A stretch of DNA of 61,365 nucleotides, counting the filler, from Candidatus Aminicenantales bacterium (GTDB taxonomy: Bacteria; Acidobacteriota; Aminicenantia; Aminicenantales; Saccharicenantaceae), in the NCBI GenBank assembly GCA_049512315.1. It is 5 parts of 4 records of this genome, joined end to end, with 100 filler letters (N's around TTAATTAATTAA, not from the genome) between each part and the next. Parts side by side here need not be neighbours in the genome. Positions count along the whole stretch, not along the records: positions 47,573 to 49,564 come from JBEKXF010000011.1; 4 more parts are not named here. One strand, given 5' to 3'. The notes beneath the pieces were generated by a model, which was given only the letters and a program-made list of their open reading frames with translations, did no database searches and was not told the origin of the DNA. Both the position numbers and the translations under genes were made by a program. Below, one piece after another: positions 2,654-58,563 of the stretch (position 1 is the stretch's first letter; each line of letters starts with the position of its first letter).

Positions 2654-4608
<1,955 letters not shown>

Positions 4609-5372: not shown

Positions 5373-6221
5373 CTATTTCCAGACGAGCTTTTCGAGGCCT
5401 TTCAGCCTCTTGAGCGCGGCCGCGTCGGTTTGGTCGAGCGTGAGCGGCGTCACGGCGATGTAGCCGTTCCTTACGGCCCAGGTGTCCGTGTTCTCGGGGC
5501 CCGCGTCCAGGGTCTTGTATGACGGCCAGTAAGAATCCTGCCCGTCCCCCGTCTCCCTCTTCTCAAAGAATTCCATGGTCGGGCGGACGTCCTGCCTGGT
5601 GATCATGATGCCCTTGATCCTGTCCTTGGGTAGAGCAGGGATGTTGATGTTGAGAAGCATCCCTTTCTCGAAACCCTTCCGGGCGAGCTCCCGGACGAGG
5701 GCGGACGTGAAGTCCGCGGCGGCCTTGTAGTCCATGTCCGGTCCGCTCTGGAGATTGACGGAGATCGCCGGGATCCGGAGGAAGGCCGCCTCCCTGGCCG
5801 CCGCCACCGTCGCCGAATAGAAGGTCACGAGACCGACGTTCTCCCCTCTGTTGGTGCCGGCGATAACGATGTCCGGCTTTTCCGGAAGAAGGGATTCCAG
5901 GGCCAGGCGGACACAGGAGGCCGGGGTGGCGTCGATCGCGAACCACGTGGCGCCCTTCCGCTCGCTTTTCCGGACGGGGATGAGCTTTCGCGTCGTCATC
6001 CCGTGGCTGATCCCGCTCTGCTCCCGGACGGGGGCGGCGACCGTGACGGTCCCGACCTTCTGCAGGGCATCGAAAAGGGTCGCCAGCCCCGGCGCCTCGA
6101 TCCCGTCGTCGTTGGAGAGCAAGATCTTCGGGGGAACGGGCTCGACGCCGGCGCAGCGGACGGCGGCCGCCAGCAGGAAAGCCAGCGCGACCATGGTCAT
6201 GGTTCTTCGGTTCGTCCTCAT
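5373..6221 (-). CDS. surE: 5'/3'-nucleotidase SurE with N-terminal signal peptide
   Basis: ILLSNDDGIEAPG, APxxEQSGISH, ATPASCV, GTNRGENVG...YSATVAAA, GYIAVTPL. Confidence 0.92.
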   Translation of the reverse strand: MRTNRRTMTMVALAFLLAAAVRCAGVEPVPPKILLSNDDGIEAPGLATLFDALQKVGTVTVAAPVREQSGISHGMTTRKLIPVRKSERKGATWFAIDATPASCVRLALESLLPEKPDIVIAGTNRGENVGLVTFYSATVAAAREAAFLRIPAISVNLQSGPDMDYKAAADFTSALVRELARKGFEKGMLLNINIPALPKDRIKGIMITRQDVRPTMEFFEKRETGDGQDSYWPSYKTLDAGPENTDTWAVRNGYIAVTPLTLDQTDAAALKRLKGLEKLVWK

Positions 6222-37186: not shown

Positions 37187-38060
37187 GGAGTGTGACCGGC
37201 GGGGCCGACCACTTTTTTCATCATCGGAAGATTCGCCGCCGCGACCCTCTCGCCCGTCCTGATGATCCTCCCGGGGTCGGAAAAATCGAGCGTCTCGACG
37301 TCGATGGGGACCCGGAGGACGAAATCGGCCCGGCGCGCCGTCTTCTCATTGGACCTGGCCCTCGCCACTTCGAACACTCTCTGGACGACTTGAAGCGTGT
37401 TCTTGATCTTTTCCGGCGGCATTTTCCTGAGGGGCCGGTGGATGTCCACGAGAATGGTGACGGCGGCCCCCGCCTTTTTGGCCGCTTCGACCGGCGCGTT
37501 GTCGAGCACTCCGCCGTCCAGAAGAAGCATGCCCTCCATCCCGGCCGGAGTGAACAAAAGGGGAAGGGACATCGTCGCCCGGAGGGCTTTATAAAGCCTC
37601 CCCCGGTCGAACAGGACCTCTTTCCCCGATATAAGGTCGACGGCGTTGCAGGCGAATTTGATGGGCAACGATTCGATCCGGACGTCCCCGACCATTCTCC
37701 GGAGTAAGGACTCGAACGCGTCCTCCCTGTCCAGCCCCATTTTCCTGAAAAGCCTGTTCCTGTAGTCCGTCAGCATCAGGTATTCGAAAAGGCTCTTGGG
37801 GCTCCTGAGCAGGCGTGAGGCCGCGGATCTTTCAATGTAGTTATTAAGACTGAGGTCGCACGCGATCTCCTTCAGCTTCGTCCCGGAAAACCCGGCCGCG
37901 AAGAGCCCCCCGACCATCCCCCCCATGGAGGTCCCAGTCACGATATCCGGGACGAAGCCGTTCTTCTCGAGGACGCTGAGGACCCCGATGTGGGCGAGCC
38001 CCCGCGCCCCGCCGCCCATGAGGACCAGGGCCCAGGTTTTATCTTTTTTCGCGCGCTTAA
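37183..38060 (-). CDS. Patatin-like phospholipase (no canonical start before the first beta strand)
   Basis: WALVLMGGGARGLAHIG, GTSMG, LDGG. Confidence 0.88.
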
Positions 38061-39157
38061 CGAGAATCCTCCAGGTAAAATTCCGCCGCTTTGAGGGCCA
38101 GCTCGCGGGCGTCGAGGTCGGCCCGATTGCAGAGGACGATCACGGTGAGCCGGTCGTTCGGGAACCGCTGGATCGCCGTCCGGAAGCCCAAGGTCTCACC
38201 GTAGTGCCACATCCGGACGTGCCCTTTCCACGGATTCAGGAACCAGCCGAAGCCATATGCGGCGGGCGCTCCGTCCGGCTCGGTCGGGGGGGCTTCGGCG
38301 ACTTGGACGGGGGTCAGCGCGGGGCGCATCTCCGGCTCGCTGAGGAGGGTGTGGAGGCGCAAAGCTCCATCCCACTTCAGGAGGTCCGAAAGCGAGGAGT
38401 AGACGCCTCCGTCGCCGAGGGTCGCTGAGGTCGGGCTCTGATCCGTTTCGCGACAGCCGCCATCTTCCCTGGTGTGGCCGTAGGCGCGGTCCGGCACCTC
38501 GTTCTTGCCGCGCTCGTAGGCGACGGTGTTCGTCATTTCCAGGGGAACGAAAATGCGGTCATGCAAGAATTCGCCGAAAGGCTGGCCGGAGACCTTTTCG
38601 ACGACGAGGCCCAGCACCACGTAGCCCGAGTTGCTATAGGTCCATCGCGAACCGGGCGCGAACTTCCCGGCTTTCTGATGTTTCAGGAGTTCGAGAACCT
38701 CGGCGTCCTTGATCTGGACCTGCTCCACGGGCAGCGAGGGATCGGATGGTGGCATGAGGTCTTCGTAATCGGGGAGGCCCGAAGTGTGATTGAGGAGATG
38801 GCGGACGATGATGGCCCGGCCATATTCCGGGAAGCCGGGGAAGATGTCGGTCAGGCTGTCTTCATAACGTAGCTTTCCATCGTGCACGAGCAGCATGATG
38901 GCCGCGGCCGTGAATTGTTTGGTGACCGAAGCCAGGCGGAAGTTTGTCCGGGCGTCGATCGGGCGGCGCTTTCGCAGATCCATGACGCCATATCCGCGTT
39001 CGAAGGCAACGCGCCCGTCCTTCATAACGAGCACCGCCGCCCCCGGTTCACGGGTGGACGTCAGGCCGGCAAACATGGCGTCAACCTGCTTGGCTGAAGA
39101 AGCCTTGTTCGCCGCCCGGCACGTCACCATCATTGGAAAAACCAGCCCGATCATGAT
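38057..39157 (-). CDS. Serine hydrolase, beta-lactamase/class C family
   Basis: ASVTK (SxxK), LLNHTSGL, YSNSGY, WHYG; start approximate. Confidence 0.9.
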   Translation of the reverse strand: MMIGLVFPMMVTCRAANKASSAKQVDAMFAGLTSTREPGAAVLVMKDGRVAFERGYGVMDLRKRRPIDARTNFRLASVTKQFTAAAIMLLVHDGKLRYEDSLTDIFPGFPEYGRAIIVRHLLNHTSGLPDYEDLMPPSDPSLPVEQVQIKDAEVLELLKHQKAGKFAPGSRWTYSNSGYVVLGLVVEKVSGQPFGEFLHDRIFVPLEMTNTVAYERGKNEVPDRAYGHTREDGGCRETDQSPTSATLGDGGVYSSLSDLLKWDGALRLHTLLSEPEMRPALTPVQVAEAPPTEPDGAPAAYGFGWFLNPWKGHVRMWHYGETLGFRTAIQRFPNDRLTVIVLCNRADLDARELALKAAEFYLEDSR

Positions 39158-47726: not shown

Positions 47727-47954
47727 ATGCCGACCGTGAGCTTTGCCTCCGATATCAGGCCCCTCTTCCGTCCCGAAGATCTCGAGACCATGAAACCTCA
47801 TGGGCTCGACCTCTCCTCCTACCAAGGCGTGAGGCAAAACGCCGAGGCGATCTTAAGCCGGCTCGAGGCCGGGGGCATGCCCTGCGACGGGAGTTGGGCC
47901 GACGACTGGATAGAGAAATTCAGGCGGTGGATGGACGCCGGGATGCCGGCTTGA
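47727..47954 (+). CDS. Small hypothetical protein
   Basis: RBS AAGGAG; SFASDIRPLFR...DLSSY..V...A..I..RL..G.MPCDG.W......F.RWMDAG. Confidence 0.75.
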   Translation: MPTVSFASDIRPLFRPEDLETMKPHGLDLSSYQGVRQNAEAILSRLEAGGMPCDGSWADDWIEKFRRWMDAGMPA

Positions 47955-48069
47955 GGAAGCCCTCGCCGAGTTGTCTTTGATGGCCGCCGGTCATCGCCTG
48001 CTCGGCTTCCCGTCGCTTGCCTTTGAGGTCCGTTTGAGGTATAAAATGACGCACGACGAGCGTCCAGAC

Positions 48070-48146
48070 GTGCCTGTAGCTCAGCTGGATAGAGCGTTGG
48101 ACTCCGGATCCAAAGGTCGGAGGTTCGAATCCTCTCAGGCACGCCA
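48070..48146 (+). tRNA. tRNA-Arg(CCG)
   Basis: Cloverleaf: GTGCCTG/CAGGCAC acceptor, TTGGA-CT-CCG-GA-TCCAA, GGAGG-TTCGAAT-CCTCT, encoded CCA. Confidence 0.97.
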
Positions 48147-48244
48147 TTTCTAATTCGCTGAAAATCCAGAGGTTGCAGGATTCCCCGGCTTCCCGGCCAG
48201 ACTCGATTTTCCCGCCGTGTCACAGCCGTGCGTATGTTACTTTG

Positions 48245-48394
48245 CCATTTGCTACAATGGGAGGGCAGGGTAAGGTCTTCACACCGGTTCCCAAGAAGGA
48301 CTTGTGACATTTACCGCCCTGCCTTCCCCTTTCCCAGGATGGCCCATAGGATAAAGCAGCCACCTGCTTAAATACGCAATTGCCGCTGGGAAAG
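48245..48394 (+). ncRNA. Predicted bridge RNA of the IS110 element
   Basis: 5' hairpin CCATT/AATGG, then two stem/internal-loop/hairpin modules whose loop strands match the target and donor junctions. Confidence 0.75.
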
Positions 48395-48409
48395 GAACTT
48401 GAGAAAGGA

Positions 48410-49539
48410 GGTTTAGGAATCGATCCGTGCAAGGAGTTCCTCCAGCTGGCCATCCTCTCCCCGGGACGTGACGTGGAGTTCCGAAAACTCCCGCTTCTTC
48501 CTTCTATCACGGCGGAAATCGCCAAGTCAACCGACCCAAGCAGAACCCAGATCGCCATCGAGTCTTATGCCAGTTATGGGCGGCTGTTTATCCATGAGCT
48601 CCTCCAGAAGGGATACGACATCAGGGAGGTGAACCCGTCGGTCTCCAACAAGCTGGTCGACCTTTTTACGGAGGAACATAGCGACCGGCGAGACGCCGAA
48701 ACGATCGCTCGGGCGCTCCTCTTGATCCCTGACCTGCCGAGGGTATCCTTCAGTGAGGAAAAACTGTGGTTGGCAAAACTGAGCCGGCTCCGGAAGAAAC
48801 TGGTAAAGGATCTCAACGGCTATCTGAACCGGCTTCATGTCGCCTTGACAGAGAGCTACGGGGCCGTCTACAGGAAGATTTTCCGTACCCTTTGGACAGG
48901 GAAGGCGCTGACCTTTTTTGAAACCTCCCCCACCATCAACGACGCCCGGGCCCACCAACGGAAAGTCTGTAAAGTTCTGGGCGAAGAGAAGTGGGAGCTC
49001 GTCCGGCAAGCCGGTCAATGGGGAGAGAGGGATTTTACCTGGAGCTCTTGGGAAGGGAAGTCCGGTCGTTAACGCGGTTGATCCGAGTCCTCCAGGCGAC
49101 GCGGAAAGAGTTCGACGAGGAGATCAGGAGAATCGGCGAGAAGGATGAAGAGGTCCAGCGGTTGAGGACATTCCCGGGGATCGATTATGTGACGGCTTCA
49201 ACTCTTTTGGGCGAGATCGGAAACATCGAGAGGTTTGAGAACGAAAGCTGTCTCTCGTCCTACTGTGGCGTGAGTCCCGTGGTGTGGCAGAGTGGGACAT
49301 CGAAGATCAAAGCGAAACGCAGGAAGAGGTTCAGCCGGAGGCTCAAAGGCGTTCTCTACTTCATCTCCCTGTCCCAGATCAGAATCAATCCCGAATCCCG
49401 GCAGTACTACTGGCGAAAGAGACGAGAGGGCAAAACCCACTGGCAAGCCATGAATGCCCTCTCCCGGCAGCTCATCAAGATCATCTACTACATGCTCAAG
49501 AATAAGGAATCTTATTGCCGAAAGGAGGCTGTCAACTAA
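48410..49539 (+). pseudogene. IS110-family transposase/recombinase, frameshifted near 49030, start codon missing
   Basis: LGIDPCK, IAIES, HSDRRDAETIAR; second frame has TFPGID, SYCGVSPVVWQSG, ALSRQLIKIIYYML. Confidence 0.88.
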
Positions 49540-49564
49540 AATATTGACATAGGATAATGTCACA

Positions 49565-49664
49565 NNNNNNNNNNNNNNNNNNNNNNNNNNNNNNNNNNNN
49601 NNNNNNNNTTAATTAATTAANNNNNNNNNNNNNNNNNNNNNNNNNNNNNNNNNNNNNNNNNNNN
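49565..49664. other. Artificial contig linker
   Basis: N-run with TTAATTAATTAA. Confidence 0.98.
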
Positions 49665-58269: not shown

Positions 58270-58445
58270 CTGCGGACCTCCTTTTGAGATTTTGGTCCGA
58301 CGAGTCATCTAGCACAGCATTACCCGTCAGGGAGGTGCGTTTCGCTATCATGTTACCTAATTCTGACTAATGGTGCGTAAAGGAAAACAAGGCATTCTCC
58401 CCTGGAAATCGGGTTTTCTCCATATATCCAGAAGGGTAGAGGAGG

Positions 58446-58563
58446 GGACTCCGGATCCAAAGGTCGGAGGTTCGAATCCTCTCAGGCGCGCCATATCTAA
58501 TTCACTGAAAATCCTGAAGTTACAGACTTTTCCTGGTTCCCCGCCAGACTCGATTTTCCCGCC
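58446..58563 (+). repeat. Direct repeat of tRNA-Arg 3' half plus about 70 nt of flank (att-like)
   Basis: Aligns without gaps to 48099-48216; tRNA part 47/48 identical. Confidence 0.9.

Follow-up and report, generated by a model that had tools for sequence, protein, structure and literature searches.

A damaged copy of an IS110-group insertion sequence with a candidate bridge RNA from an uncultured Aminicenantes bacterium

The window, a stretch of 61,365 nucleotides of DNA joined from five parts of the genome of a Candidatus Aminicenantales bacterium (GCA_049512315.1), carries an IS110-group insertion sequence at positions 48229-49557 (+), in which a non-coding left end lies 5′ of a DEDD/Tnp recombinase gene. 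All features described here are on the plus strand. The left end measures ~185 nt, from 48229 to the recombinase start site at 48415/16, and the right end consists of the 18 nt that follow the recombinase stop. A tRNA-Arg(CCG) gene occupies 48070..48146 (ARAGORN; Rfam tRNA, 70.3 bits), and the insertion site is 72-83 nt downstream of it. At the left junction, CACAGCCG is followed by the core dinucleotide TG (48229-48230) and CGTATGT; at the right junction, CATAGGATAA (49548-57) is followed by the same TG (49558-59) and TCACA (49560-64), after which the contig ends in an N linker. The right end (49544..49557) harbors a -35-like TTGACA (49544-49) overlapping the left donor arm CATAGGATAA, which is identical to the left donor guide and is present at exactly two places in the 61 kb window, where 0.03 occurrences would be expected (100 shuffles).

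The boundaries agree with those of other copies of the element, which share the same ends. The last 115 nt together with TGTCACA recur on two more contigs of the same genome (C56 and C30), whose sequences diverge afterwards. At least two different right flanks follow the element in its own genome, and a metagenome contig (L081) has a third; all are of the form TG-TCACA, a pattern that, read from sequence, speaks for recent movement. The same core is found at both junctions without a target-site duplication, and empty sites equal the joined flanks in length.

The left half of the target (48218..48228) comprises a first TGTCACA palindrome (48218-24) and GCCG, the same architecture being found in empty sites. 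Its last 9 nt, TCACAGCCG (48220-28), constitute the left target (LT) and match the left target guide at 7/9 positions. The core TG and the right target TCACA (49558..49564, at the contig end) make up the second TGTCACA palindrome; the same 7 nt are present on C56 and C30, and the right target guide is their reverse complement. In nature, the element targets a conserved repeat with two TGTNACA palindromes 11 nt apart, and seven empty TGTNACA-N4-TGTNACA loci exist in the same genome, one of which (C66) is paralogous to the left flank in the window. The palindromes are located at the edge of this landing-pad repeat, which ends in a 3′ fragment of tRNA-Arg and occurs after single genes in same-strand arrays and, once, beside a tyrosine integrase; a tyrosine integrase gene of this genome is located at C34:11636-12763. 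In seven other genomes of the genus, an orthologous empty site was not found: the best match (G002 C44) stops at a contig end before the site, almost all remaining matches are the tRNA or its fragment, and one contig (G006:C8) matches the upstream flank twice.

As a hypothesis only, the targeted repeat could be a recombination site. The IS1111-attC elements and IS4321/IS5075 are IS110-family elements that have specialised in targeting the recombination sites or the termini of other mobile systems. As members of the IS1111 group they carry their RNA, unlike the window element, in the right end. The IS1111 group is characterized by a guide RNA in a long right end and by long subterminal inverted repeats (Durrant 2024), whereas the right end of the window element is 18 nt long and its structured RNA is in the left end.

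The recombinase gene is preceded by the RBS GGAGG (48407-11), which, on the basis of protein and DNA alignments, is followed by an assembly-gap point at 48415/48416 (feature 48407..48416). Here the assembly lacks 48 nt that relatives have, equivalent to ATG and 15 codons, and the contig crossing this point carries the 48 extra letters in 4/4 public metagenome runs. The first part of the gene (48416..49024; frame open 48380-49072) encodes the RuvC-like DEDD domain (PF01548, E 4.4e-14), and the second part (49025..49539; frame open 48991-49539) encodes the Tnp domain with a conserved serine in QSGTS (PF02371, E 5.1e-22). Between the two domains, a (GA)n run at 49023..49029 has 2 extra bases compared to the intact relatives L017, L018, L019, and L050 (DNA alignment), resulting in a frameshift. 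The +2 frameshift is present in 4/4 runs, in X1 and X3 on one gap-free contig covering 48416-49564, and in X2 and X4 on gap-free contigs across the site. Programmed frameshifting at the run is unlikely, as no slippery motif is visible and the four aligned relatives are all in frame.

The catalytic residues are preserved across the broken frames. D19, E65, D106, and D109 (P0005 numbering) do not vary among 28 relatives, and all of them are found in the window's first frame; the acidic residues of the clade align to D13, E62, and the D..D pair of the IS621 chain. QSG is also invariant in relatives and is aligned with ESG of IS621 and ISCro4. The clade serine would correspond to S241, a reading that rests on a 2-residue N-terminal offset of the deposited chain. 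The best sequence match in the structural database is ISCro4 (PDB 9t56, E 7.7e-18), a distant relationship within the same family, followed by IS621 (8wt6, 1.2e-17), with the D, E, D, D, and S columns of the family profile aligned. With the +2 frameshift at 49023-29 and the ATG region absent from the assembly, the gene is not intact, and the copy as it stands would make no recombinase; its movement could be possible only with a related recombinase in trans. The assembly holds no intact clade copy, only a 27%-identical paralogue on C50. This damage lowers the claim of activity for the copy and not its assignment to the IS110 family.

The predicted bridge RNA is composed of two hairpins. The target-binding loop hairpin (48260..48327) is backed by the consensus fold, by pair counts, and by guide/flank and handshake covariation. 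It has outer stems at 48260-76/48313-27 and a distal hairpin at 48289-48300, and contains the left target guide UCACACCGG (48279-87, plus U48288), the right target guide UGUGACA (48303-09), which is the complement of TG-TCACA, and the handshake guide UU (48310-11). The donor-binding loop hairpin (48330..48393; consensus fold, pair counts, and covariation) has outer stems at 48330-43/48382-93 and a distal hairpin near 48356-67. It contains the left donor guide CAUAGGAUAA (48345-54), which equals the last 10 nt of the element, the right donor guide AUACGCA (48372-78), complementary to TG and the first 5 nt of the element, and the handshake guide AU (48379-80); its closing stem pairs CTTTCCCAG (48329-37) with CTGGGAAAG (48386-94). 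The junction and loop strings that a preliminary description had quoted are all present where it placed them, the loop strings being TTCACACCG (48278-86), TGTGACA (48303-09), CATAGGATAA (48345-54), and ATACGCA (48372-78). Its partial match between loop 1 and the left flank holds (7/9 of the flank), with the limits of the left target guide refined to 48279-87 and U48288 opposite the first core base.

A single-sequence fold yields two long hairpins at -66.6 kcal/mol, compared to -56.4 for shuffled sequences (z = -2.3; 5/200 shuffles as good), which by itself argues weakly for the predicted structure. The consensus structure of 38 distinct sequences has 33 pairs, 11 of them with compensatory changes. 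Paired cells make up 98.7% of 1252, versus 95.8% in shuffled and 44-58% in slid controls, and 0/500 shuffles attain any of five measures, although this and the other shuffle controls, those of the guides and handshake pairs included, leave shared ancestry among relatives in place. The two internal-loop hairpins proposed earlier, for which folding and covariation among homologues had been named as the check, are thus present in the single fold and strongly supported on 38 relatives. The 5′ hairpin proposed alongside them is marginal in the single fold and has no consensus pair in alignment columns 1-40; its region holds two conserved promoter-like motifs instead. One base is absent at 48259 relative to four relatives (DNA alignment). 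The single-sequence fold pairs both target guides with each other, and loop 1 may be closed in the free RNA. An Rfam 15 search of 47900-49570 (E up to 1) returned the tRNA only and matched no bridge-RNA family, and none of the 24 public runs listed as holding the stretch is recorded as RNA.

Pairing between guides and DNA was evaluated on 40 distinct of 46 elements, with 35-38 used per pairing and 10000 shuffles. The left target agrees with its guide at a mean of 7.37/9 positions versus 4.94 when shuffled (n = 38), the right target at 4.43/5 versus 3.72 (n = 35), the right donor at 4.87/5 versus 4.32 (n = 38), and the left donor at 9.57/10 versus 9.16 (n = 35); for each pairing, 0/10000 shuffles were as high. 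The loop sequences covary with insertion sites over these 35-38 distinct relatives, as the preliminary description had required of a bridge RNA. The window copy itself matches 10/10 at the left donor, 5/5 at the right donor, and 5/5 at the right target, and its left guide has 2/9 mismatches to its own left flank TCACAGCCG. Elements aimed at unrelated sites covary fully with their own guides. L007 is retargeted to the site ATTATTTCA-CG-CCATA, its guides being ATTATTTCA and the complement of CGCCATT, while the guide of the retargeted L024 is the complement of TG-GTCAA. L050 and L055 are retargeted to TCACC, and L030, with the right donor TGTGT, has the guide ACACACG. Counts of the two flank types by loose regular expressions miss visibly related flanks and indicate a trend only.

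The handshake pairs follow the same logic. The pair in loop 1 agrees with the final two donor bases at 66/66 positions versus 51.3 when shuffled, and that in loop 2 with guide positions 8-9 at 64/76 versus 46.9, with 0/5000 shuffles as high in either case. In the window, UU of loop 1 fits AA, and AU of loop 2 pairs with neither of the last two bases (CG) of the copy's own left target.

The core complements of the two right guides agree mutually in 40/40 elements and with the right-junction core in 34/35. The element had been introduced as a new ortholog with a TG core and a 10-nt donor guide; the TG core and the guide length stand, the lone ortholog gives way to a clade for which public data hold at least 141 related proteins, and the core is better written YG, as it varies between TG and CG. 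In nine distinct elements, the guides specify a CG core. Their right junction keeps the donor C in 9/9, and their left junction has T in six, G in one, and C in two. This pattern would be expected if the junction sequence were set by the transferred top strand alone, which two 2025-26 preprints have reportedly proposed from bench work.

The start of the left end (48231..48258) holds the right donor arm CGTAT (48231-35), an extended -10, TGT-TACTTT (48235-43), and a second extended -10, TGCTACAAT (48250-58), both of them conserved among relatives and putative promoter elements. Circularisation at TG had been said to create TTGACA-N17-TACTTT, and this arrangement is indeed present: TTGACA (49544-49), 8 nt, TG, 7 nt, and TACTTT (48238-43) give a 17-nt spacer. 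The motif is conserved, such that, read by position, T1 and A2 of the junction -10 occur in 37/37 relatives, T6 in 35/37, and the preceding TGT in 37/37. TTGACA-N17-TGT-TAnnnT, present in the window and conserved in relatives, is a putative promoter only. The second motif, found as TGNTANAAT in 30/37 relatives, is nearer to the first hairpin than the junction -10 and is a putative alternative promoter. An RNA start ~7 nt after TAnnnT would indicate the junction promoter, and a start after TGNTACAAT the internal promoter. A promoter scan of the linear window gave two weak sites within the 3′ end of the gene, neither of which is relevant; the junction promoter is absent from the linear sequence by nature. 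A joint from 49557 to 48229 was not reported in four public runs searched as DNA contigs (Logan), in which rare forms are not visible.

For circle formation, transcription, and catalysis, the following cycle would be expected by analogy with IS621. The element would circularise, joining its right and left ends at the core to form a promoter of TTGACA, 17 nt, and TGT-TACTTT, from which an RNA of ~140-150 nt could be made. The first loop would read the target, UCACACCGG(U) corresponding in sequence to the 9 nt left of the core and pairing with the bottom strand. The second loop would read the element's own joined ends, with CAUAGGAUAA corresponding to the last 10 nt and AUACGCA pairing with TG-CGTAT. 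Handshake guides for the exchanged strand would be provided by the two bases 3′ of each right guide. A recombinase combining the DEDD RuvC-like domain and the Tnp serine would then exchange strands at the core without target duplication.

With a probability of about 0.9, window 48229-49557 represents a damaged copy of an IS110-group element that would move by bridge-RNA-guided recombination in the manner of IS621. The assignment to the IS621-type design, made in the preliminary description, is borne out in that every feature of the design that sequence can reveal is present, and it builds on what is observed of the element's anatomy and boundaries, the structure of the RNA, the covariation of the guides, and the damage to the gene. 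The matches in loop 1 could be a by-product if UCACA (48279-83) and UGUGA (48303-07) were merely a stem and not guides. The single-sequence fold pairs these segments, their first five bases are fully complementary in 23/40 distinct relatives with 4/5 paired in 11 more, and both sides are altered together in the G002 remnant. However, the partial complementarity of the two loop 1 halves is explained by the target, in which the same palindrome is present twice, and both segments are unpaired in the consensus fold of 38 sequences. At most 3/5 positions pair in 6/40 relatives, some of which (e.g., L007 and L024) still match their own flanks, and the four bases at the 3′ end of the left guide covary with the flank without having an RNA partner (GCCGG in L017, GTATT in L029, and ACCGT in L047). 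A stem as the sole account of loop 1 is ruled out by the retargeted relatives, and we consider it highly improbable. The presence of TGTCACA 11 nt left of the junction and again directly 3′ of the element, as well as 10 nt common to the two flanks of L045/L046, would fit a longer element that starts at 48218-25 and has on either side a 7-bp direct repeat, generated when it entered a target with only one TGTNACA. Against this, the seven empty sites of the same genome already have both palindromes 11 nt apart and rule out a boundary at the outer TGTCACA with a 7-bp duplication. Moreover, the central base of the two motifs is often unequal within one locus (e.g., L008, L018, and L026), the right donor guide pairs with TG-CGTAT at 48229-35 and not with the sequence at 48225, and the 17-nt promoter spacing arises only with the junction at 48229-30; the longer element is very unlikely.

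Whether the copy retains any function is a more balanced question. The chances are about even that it is an inert relic, with RNA structure and matches inherited from an active ancestor. The frameshift between the domains in all four public runs, the start codon absent from the assembly, the base absent at 48259, the imperfect fit of the left guide and of the loop 2 handshake pair to the present site, and the lack of an intact paralogue in the assembly are all consistent with decay. On the other hand, the copy retains its ends, its two loops, and its promoter motifs intact, and the several right flanks, all with TG-TCACA, speak for recent movement. Loss of function bears on activity only and is compatible with the identification of the copy as an IS110 element with a bridge RNA. 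The copy belongs to a large clade of elements carried by uncultured Aminicenantes bacteria and involves no new mechanism.

In a DNA search of 40 relatives, the RNA region is covered only by a solo left-end remnant in G002, with G013 giving a 26-nt match in the recombinase gene. A covariance-model search of 87 genomes of the family matched three (G000, the G002 remnant, and, weakly, G024, E 1.5e-4), which says little on absence, as MAGs are often without assembled repeats. In seven text files of the Durrant 2024 supplements, some of them incomplete, CATAGGATA, GGATGGCCCATAGG, TTGACATAGGAT, GGAUGGCC, and Aminicenantes are absent, and CAUAGGAUA is found a single time, in an unrelated sequence; this suggests, if weakly, that these supplements do not show the clade. 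Thousands of IS110 bridge RNAs have already been predicted, according to the same work (Durrant 2024).

The layout of IS621 from Escherichia coli, as given in Durrant et al. 2024 (PMC11208160) and Hiraizumi et al. 2024 (PMC11208158), is shared by the clade in several respects: a recombinase of DEDD and Tnp domains that has a catalytic serine, a left end holding a bridge RNA with two internal loops, a left guide with the top-strand sequence and a right guide complementary to the top strand, and no target duplication. However, there are several differences between the two. The clade recombinase has ~389 aa, with good alignment restricted to its C-terminal half. The clade core is TG or CG, the second base G being constant, in contrast to CT with a constant T in these descriptions of IS621, and the target read-out is 9+2+5 nt compared to 7+2+2, extendable to 7+2+5. 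In addition, the left donor guide of the clade is 10 nt long and unpaired with the first core base, a 5′ stem-loop is not supported, a second conserved extended -10 is found inside the left end, and the window copy is broken. The window element also resembles ISPpu10 of Pseudomonas putida, another IS110 element inserting in copies of a conserved repeat; according to a preprint (10.64898/2026.03.19.712850), all its insertions are in copies of one conserved intergenic repeat with secondary-structure potential. The added determinant in ISPpu10 is a GC-rich stem-loop 5′ of the target, whereas the target of the window element itself consists of two 7-bp palindromes.

Conceptually, nothing here is new, as publications already cover the design, the logic of covariation, handshake guides, and the promoter at the junction. 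Bridge recombinases are under development as programmable genome-rearrangement tools, for which natural diversity in guide length and core is raw material. ISCro4/IS622-type bridge recombinases are reportedly used for genome engineering in a preprint by Perry et al. A clade with a longer target (9+2+5) than wild-type IS621 and a YG core is a usable lead even though the window copy is broken, and intact relatives exist in public metagenomes (e.g., the element in L017). It is conceivable, if rather unlikely, that the clade jointly adds the reading of a 16-bp target and a 17-bp donor that share only the second core base (G), junctions that record natural strand movement, and specialisation on the attachment site of an undescribed cassette system. 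On the host side, the element points to a family of repeats close to tRNA-Arg fragments that merits separate study.

The element is an IS110-group insertion sequence on the plus strand, with a putative bridge RNA in its left end and a broken recombinase gene. Contig C11 of the window's own assembly (77 contigs, 96.6% complete) carries it at its 3′ end; a tRNA-Arg(CCG) gene occupies 48070–48146, and the right flank in the window amounts to only 7 nt, the contigs being joined by N linkers. The recombinase frames match PF01548 (DEDD_Tnp_IS110; 48380–49072, plus strand, E = 4.4e-14) and PF02371 (Transposase_20; 48991–49539, plus strand, E = 5.1e-22). Every string quoted in the preliminary description was recovered where it had been placed, and CATAGGATAA occurs twice in 61 kb (0.03 expected). 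The assembly holds one complete copy (C11:94836–96164). Its final 115 nt also open contig C56 and, in reverse orientation, close contig C30. All three contigs read ...CATAGGATAA-TG-TCACA and thus share their right boundary, after which they diverge (C56 continues with ATTGGCTTG, C30 with GATTTTGCC); the end of C11 thus coincides exactly with an assembly branch point. Left-end words of 12–30 nt occur once in the genome, so at least one left flank is absent from the bin. Two contigs of one metagenome (L087 and L088) start inside the element, within ~100 nt of its right end, and continue into the right flanks seen on C56 and C30, so the same break is present in that assembly.

The left flank has TGTCACA 11 nt ahead of the junction, as would be expected if the true left end lay farther left and TGTCACA were a 7-bp duplication made on insertion. 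This explanation fails, however, because the empty arrangement TGTNACA-N4-TGTNACA is present at seven loci of the same genome (an estimated ~0.2–0.4 expected). At one of these, C66:5446, the sequence to the left is paralogous to the window's left flank (...CTCGCCG-TGTCACA-ACCG-TG-TAACA-GATTTGCC). Moreover, when the flanks of occupied sites of relatives are juxtaposed, the same 7+4+7 architecture and length result, as at locus L017 (left, ...CCCCG-TGTAACG-CCGG-TG; right, TG-TAACA-GATTTTGC). These comparisons place the element at 48229–49557, with the core dinucleotide counted once, and indicate that it inserted, with no duplication, at the TG belonging to the second palindrome.

With the first recombinase frame as query, 141 of 578 candidate proteins were retrieved at E ≤ 0.001. 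The best are 84–92% identical, full-length forms are mostly 387–389 aa, and some are named IS110 family transposase, from Aminicenantes or Deltaproteobacteria MAGs. Through an alignment of 28 relatives, species genomes contributed 11 loci and metagenomes 80. The guide table comprises 46 elements (40 distinct, window included) whose whole left-end RNA region could be parsed by anchored patterns, leaving out loci with a right end only or a partial left end; guides were assigned by alignment position. In loop 1, the target-binding loop, the left guide (48279–87, plus one U opposite core base 1) corresponds to the 9 nt left of the junction, and the right guide (48303–09) is the reverse complement of the core and the 5 nt right of the element. 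In loop 2, the donor-binding loop, the left guide (48345–54) has the sequence of the last 10 nt of the element, and the right guide (48372–78) is the reverse complement of the core and the first 5 nt. The window itself matches at 10/10 positions for the left donor, 5/5 for the right donor, 5/5 for the right target, and 7/9 for the left target. The 10-nt donor guide and both right guides of the preliminary description are thus borne out, as is its partial left-target match, although its coordinates for the latter (48278–86) shift by one.

Across distinct elements, loop sequences covary with insertion sites and element ends. The observed mean match is 7.37 of 9 for the left target (n = 38; shuffled 4.94, best shuffle 5.74), 4.43 of 5 for the right target (n = 35; 3.72, 4.17), 4.87 of 5 for the right donor (n = 38; 4.32, 4.66), and 9.57 of 10 for the left donor (n = 35; 9.16, 9.46), each reached by 0/10000 shuffles. 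Because kinship inflates these tests, elements aimed elsewhere are the most telling. L007 occupies ATTATTTCA-CG-CCATA and carries the guides ATTATTTCA and the complement of CG-CCATT. The guide of L024 is the complement of TG-GTCAA, and this element is inserted directly before GTCAA; L050 and L055 have TCACC in both guide and flank. On the donor side, L030 starts with TG-TGTGT and its guide has changed from G to A to suit, while between the donor classes ...GATAA/CGTAT and ...GATAT/CGTGT both guides switch together.

In IS621, each right guide is followed on its 3′ side by two bases that contact the exchanged strand by pairing (Hiraizumi 2024, PMC11208158), and the same handshake arrangement is seen here. 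The dinucleotide 3′ of the right target guide pairs with the final two bases of the donor at 66/66 positions (shuffled mean 51.3), as UU with AA, or AU or GU with AT. The dinucleotide that follows the right donor guide pairs with positions 8–9 of the left target guide at 64/76 positions (46.9) and with the actual flank at 52/76 (37.2); all three counts were reached by 0/5000 shuffles. In the window, the second pair is AU, a mismatch to the CG of its flank. The core complement is identical in both right guides in 40/40 elements (CA in 30, CG in 10; loci of the latter type include L022, L023, L028, L030, L034, L035, and L083) and agrees with the right-junction core in 34/35, the exception being L041, which has an extra T in its right end. 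The nine CG-type elements with a right junction all have CG there (9/9), while their left junctions have TG in six, CG in two, and GG in one. The first core base would thus travel with the left arm of each partner. This pattern, which comes from natural data and is not a test, is consistent with cleavage of the top strand 3′ of the core, the mode described for IS621 in Hiraizumi 2024, and with the proposal of two preprints that the top strand fixes the junctions.

The consensus fold of 38 distinct left ends comprises two long hairpins (48260–48327 and 48330–48393) with 33 pairs in total, each opened by a large internal loop and capped by a small distal hairpin. Nothing is predicted in the first 40 columns, so that the 5′ hairpin proposed earlier is not supported, while the two internal-loop hairpins are retained. 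Of 1252 cells, 98.7% form standard pairs, compared with 95.8% in shuffles, which ignore relatedness, and 44–58% when partners are slid by 1–3 columns, a control that retains it. Eleven pairs (shuffled mean 6.5) and 60 cells (19.3) have changed on both sides, and none of five structure measures was reached by shuffling (0/500). In a single-sequence fold, UCACA of loop 1 pairs with UGUGA, and the first five bases of both target guides are fully complementary in 23/40 relatives. This complementarity is no rival to guiding: the target has the same 7-bp palindrome twice, and if one guide copies the first and the other is the complement of the second, the two must be complementary to each other. In L007, L016, L024, and L083, which have a different target, complementarity is lost and the flank matches are kept. 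Guide–guide pairing may close loop 1 in the free RNA.

Joining the right end to the left sets TTGACA 17 nt before TACTTT, a conserved motif that forms the putative circle-junction promoter suggested earlier. Position by position, the second hexamer keeps T1 in 37/37 relatives, A2 in 37/37, and T6 in 35/37, preceded by TGT (extended −10) in 37/37; TTGA precedes CATAGGAT in all listed right ends but L041. The arrangement of this putative promoter matches that of IS621 (Durrant 2024, PMC11208160). In 30/37 relatives the first hairpin is immediately preceded by a second motif, TGNTANAAT, an extended −10 (TGNTACAAT) close to consensus. Absent from the preliminary description and separate from the junction promoter, it reads TGCTACAAT in the window (48250–58). 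By analogy with IS621, for which weak expression from the integrated copy is reported (Hiraizumi 2026), it could serve expression of the integrated copy.

Set against intact relatives (L017 and L018, at 92–94% nucleotide identity), the window is short of 1 nt at 48259 and of 48 nt between 48415 and 48416, the latter comprising the ATG and 15 codons directly after the ribosome-binding site. Two extra bases in a (GA)n run at 49023–29 shift the frame between the two domains. Each of four peat-metagenome runs contains a contig with 48 extra letters at 48415/48416; in two runs (X1 and X3) this contig reaches 49564 without gaps, and in the others (X2 and X4) shorter gap-free contigs span the frameshift site. 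The 48-nt loss is therefore a feature of the assembly or of a minor variant, and the frameshift is real in the population; as the best-matching run may stem from the sample that yielded the window, the runs do not count as independent of it. The catalytic residues are all still encoded. With the gene broken and the only other IS110 gene in the assembly 27% identical, the window copy is non-autonomous. That this sequence type has moved recently is suggested by the three right flanks known for it (C56, C30, and L081), each of which has TG-TCACA.

The double palindrome lies inside a repeat of ~190 nt, which runs from GGCAGACCTCTCCCCG through two TGTNACA palindromes, GCTTAAACGCGCTTAATTCTGACTAAAGGTGCGTAAAGG, and ~60 nt to the 3′ 45–57 nt of tRNA-Arg(CCG), with a conserved block, GCTTAAACGCGCTTAAT...GGTGCGTAAAGG, after the palindromes. 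Full copies are found at C26:20748–20937, C26:21724–21934, C24:8278–8446, C27:306–480, C34:7800–7981, and C39:511–702, and a partial copy at ~58358–58494 of the window (C14:8694–8830). The repeat usually follows directly after a gene, and three of the six full copies stand behind Ser/Thr kinase genes with TPR or PD40 repeats. By loose patterns that undercount, the window's donor class has the GATTTTGC... side on its right in 5/17 distinct flanks and the other side in none, while the second class has the other side, reverse-complemented (...CGGGGAGAGGTCT), on its right in 21/48 and the opposite type in one. The two classes thus appear to enter the quasi-palindromic site in opposite orientations. 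In a same-genus genome (G002), such a site holds a solo left end of a related element (L004; C38, minus strand, ~1690–1500), in which the junction, the promoter motifs, and both RNA loops are retained and the sequence breaks within the last stem; a recombinase gene is lacking, and an M61-like peptidase gene follows.

The window's assembly has 31 matches to the tRNA-Arg(CCG) gene, only one being the full gene; most others start at tRNA positions 20–41 and extend toward the 3′ end. Many lie 25–140 nt behind single genes (including kinases, methyltransferases, and DUF1579) in same-strand arrays spaced by 1.1–2 kb, for example, C55:2797–2843, 3977–4019, and 6023–6052 (minus) and C26:36863–36909, 37926–37968, and 39118–39155 (plus), among ~30 places in all. 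Such fragments also occur in other genomes of the genus, and the pattern resembles arrays of cassettes or serial integration at tRNA-Arg. A copy of the repeat's left part, containing TGTCACA-GATT-TGTCACA, is found at C34:11112–11194, ~440 nt upstream of a tyrosine recombinase gene (C34:11636–12763; PF00589, E = 6.3e-32), for which the palindromes might be the recombination site.

In its hairpins, four guides, handshake pairs, core, and junction promoter motif, the element matches the IS621-type bridge-recombinase design first proposed for it, and in every testable respect it is of that design. Compared with IS621, it has a longer read-out (9+2+5 target and 10+2+5 donor), a YG core, and a second internal promoter motif, its left donor guide does not pair with core base 1, and a 5′ stem-loop is not supported; these differences are of degree. 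The earlier label of a new ortholog with a TG core needs qualifying: the element belongs to a clade with at least 141 related proteins, and the core is TG in the window and YG across the clade. The kind is already known, since Durrant 2024 predicted such RNAs for thousands of IS110 elements, and for 85.7% of the IS110s in ISfinder. Its incomplete supplementary texts yielded neither the conserved strings of this clade nor the word Aminicenantes, and no paper combining bridge RNA, IS110, and Aminicenantes was among the matches listed in a full-text literature search. The mechanism is thus a known one, and the novelty is limited to the clade added to it, an Aminicenantes clade that is probably undescribed.
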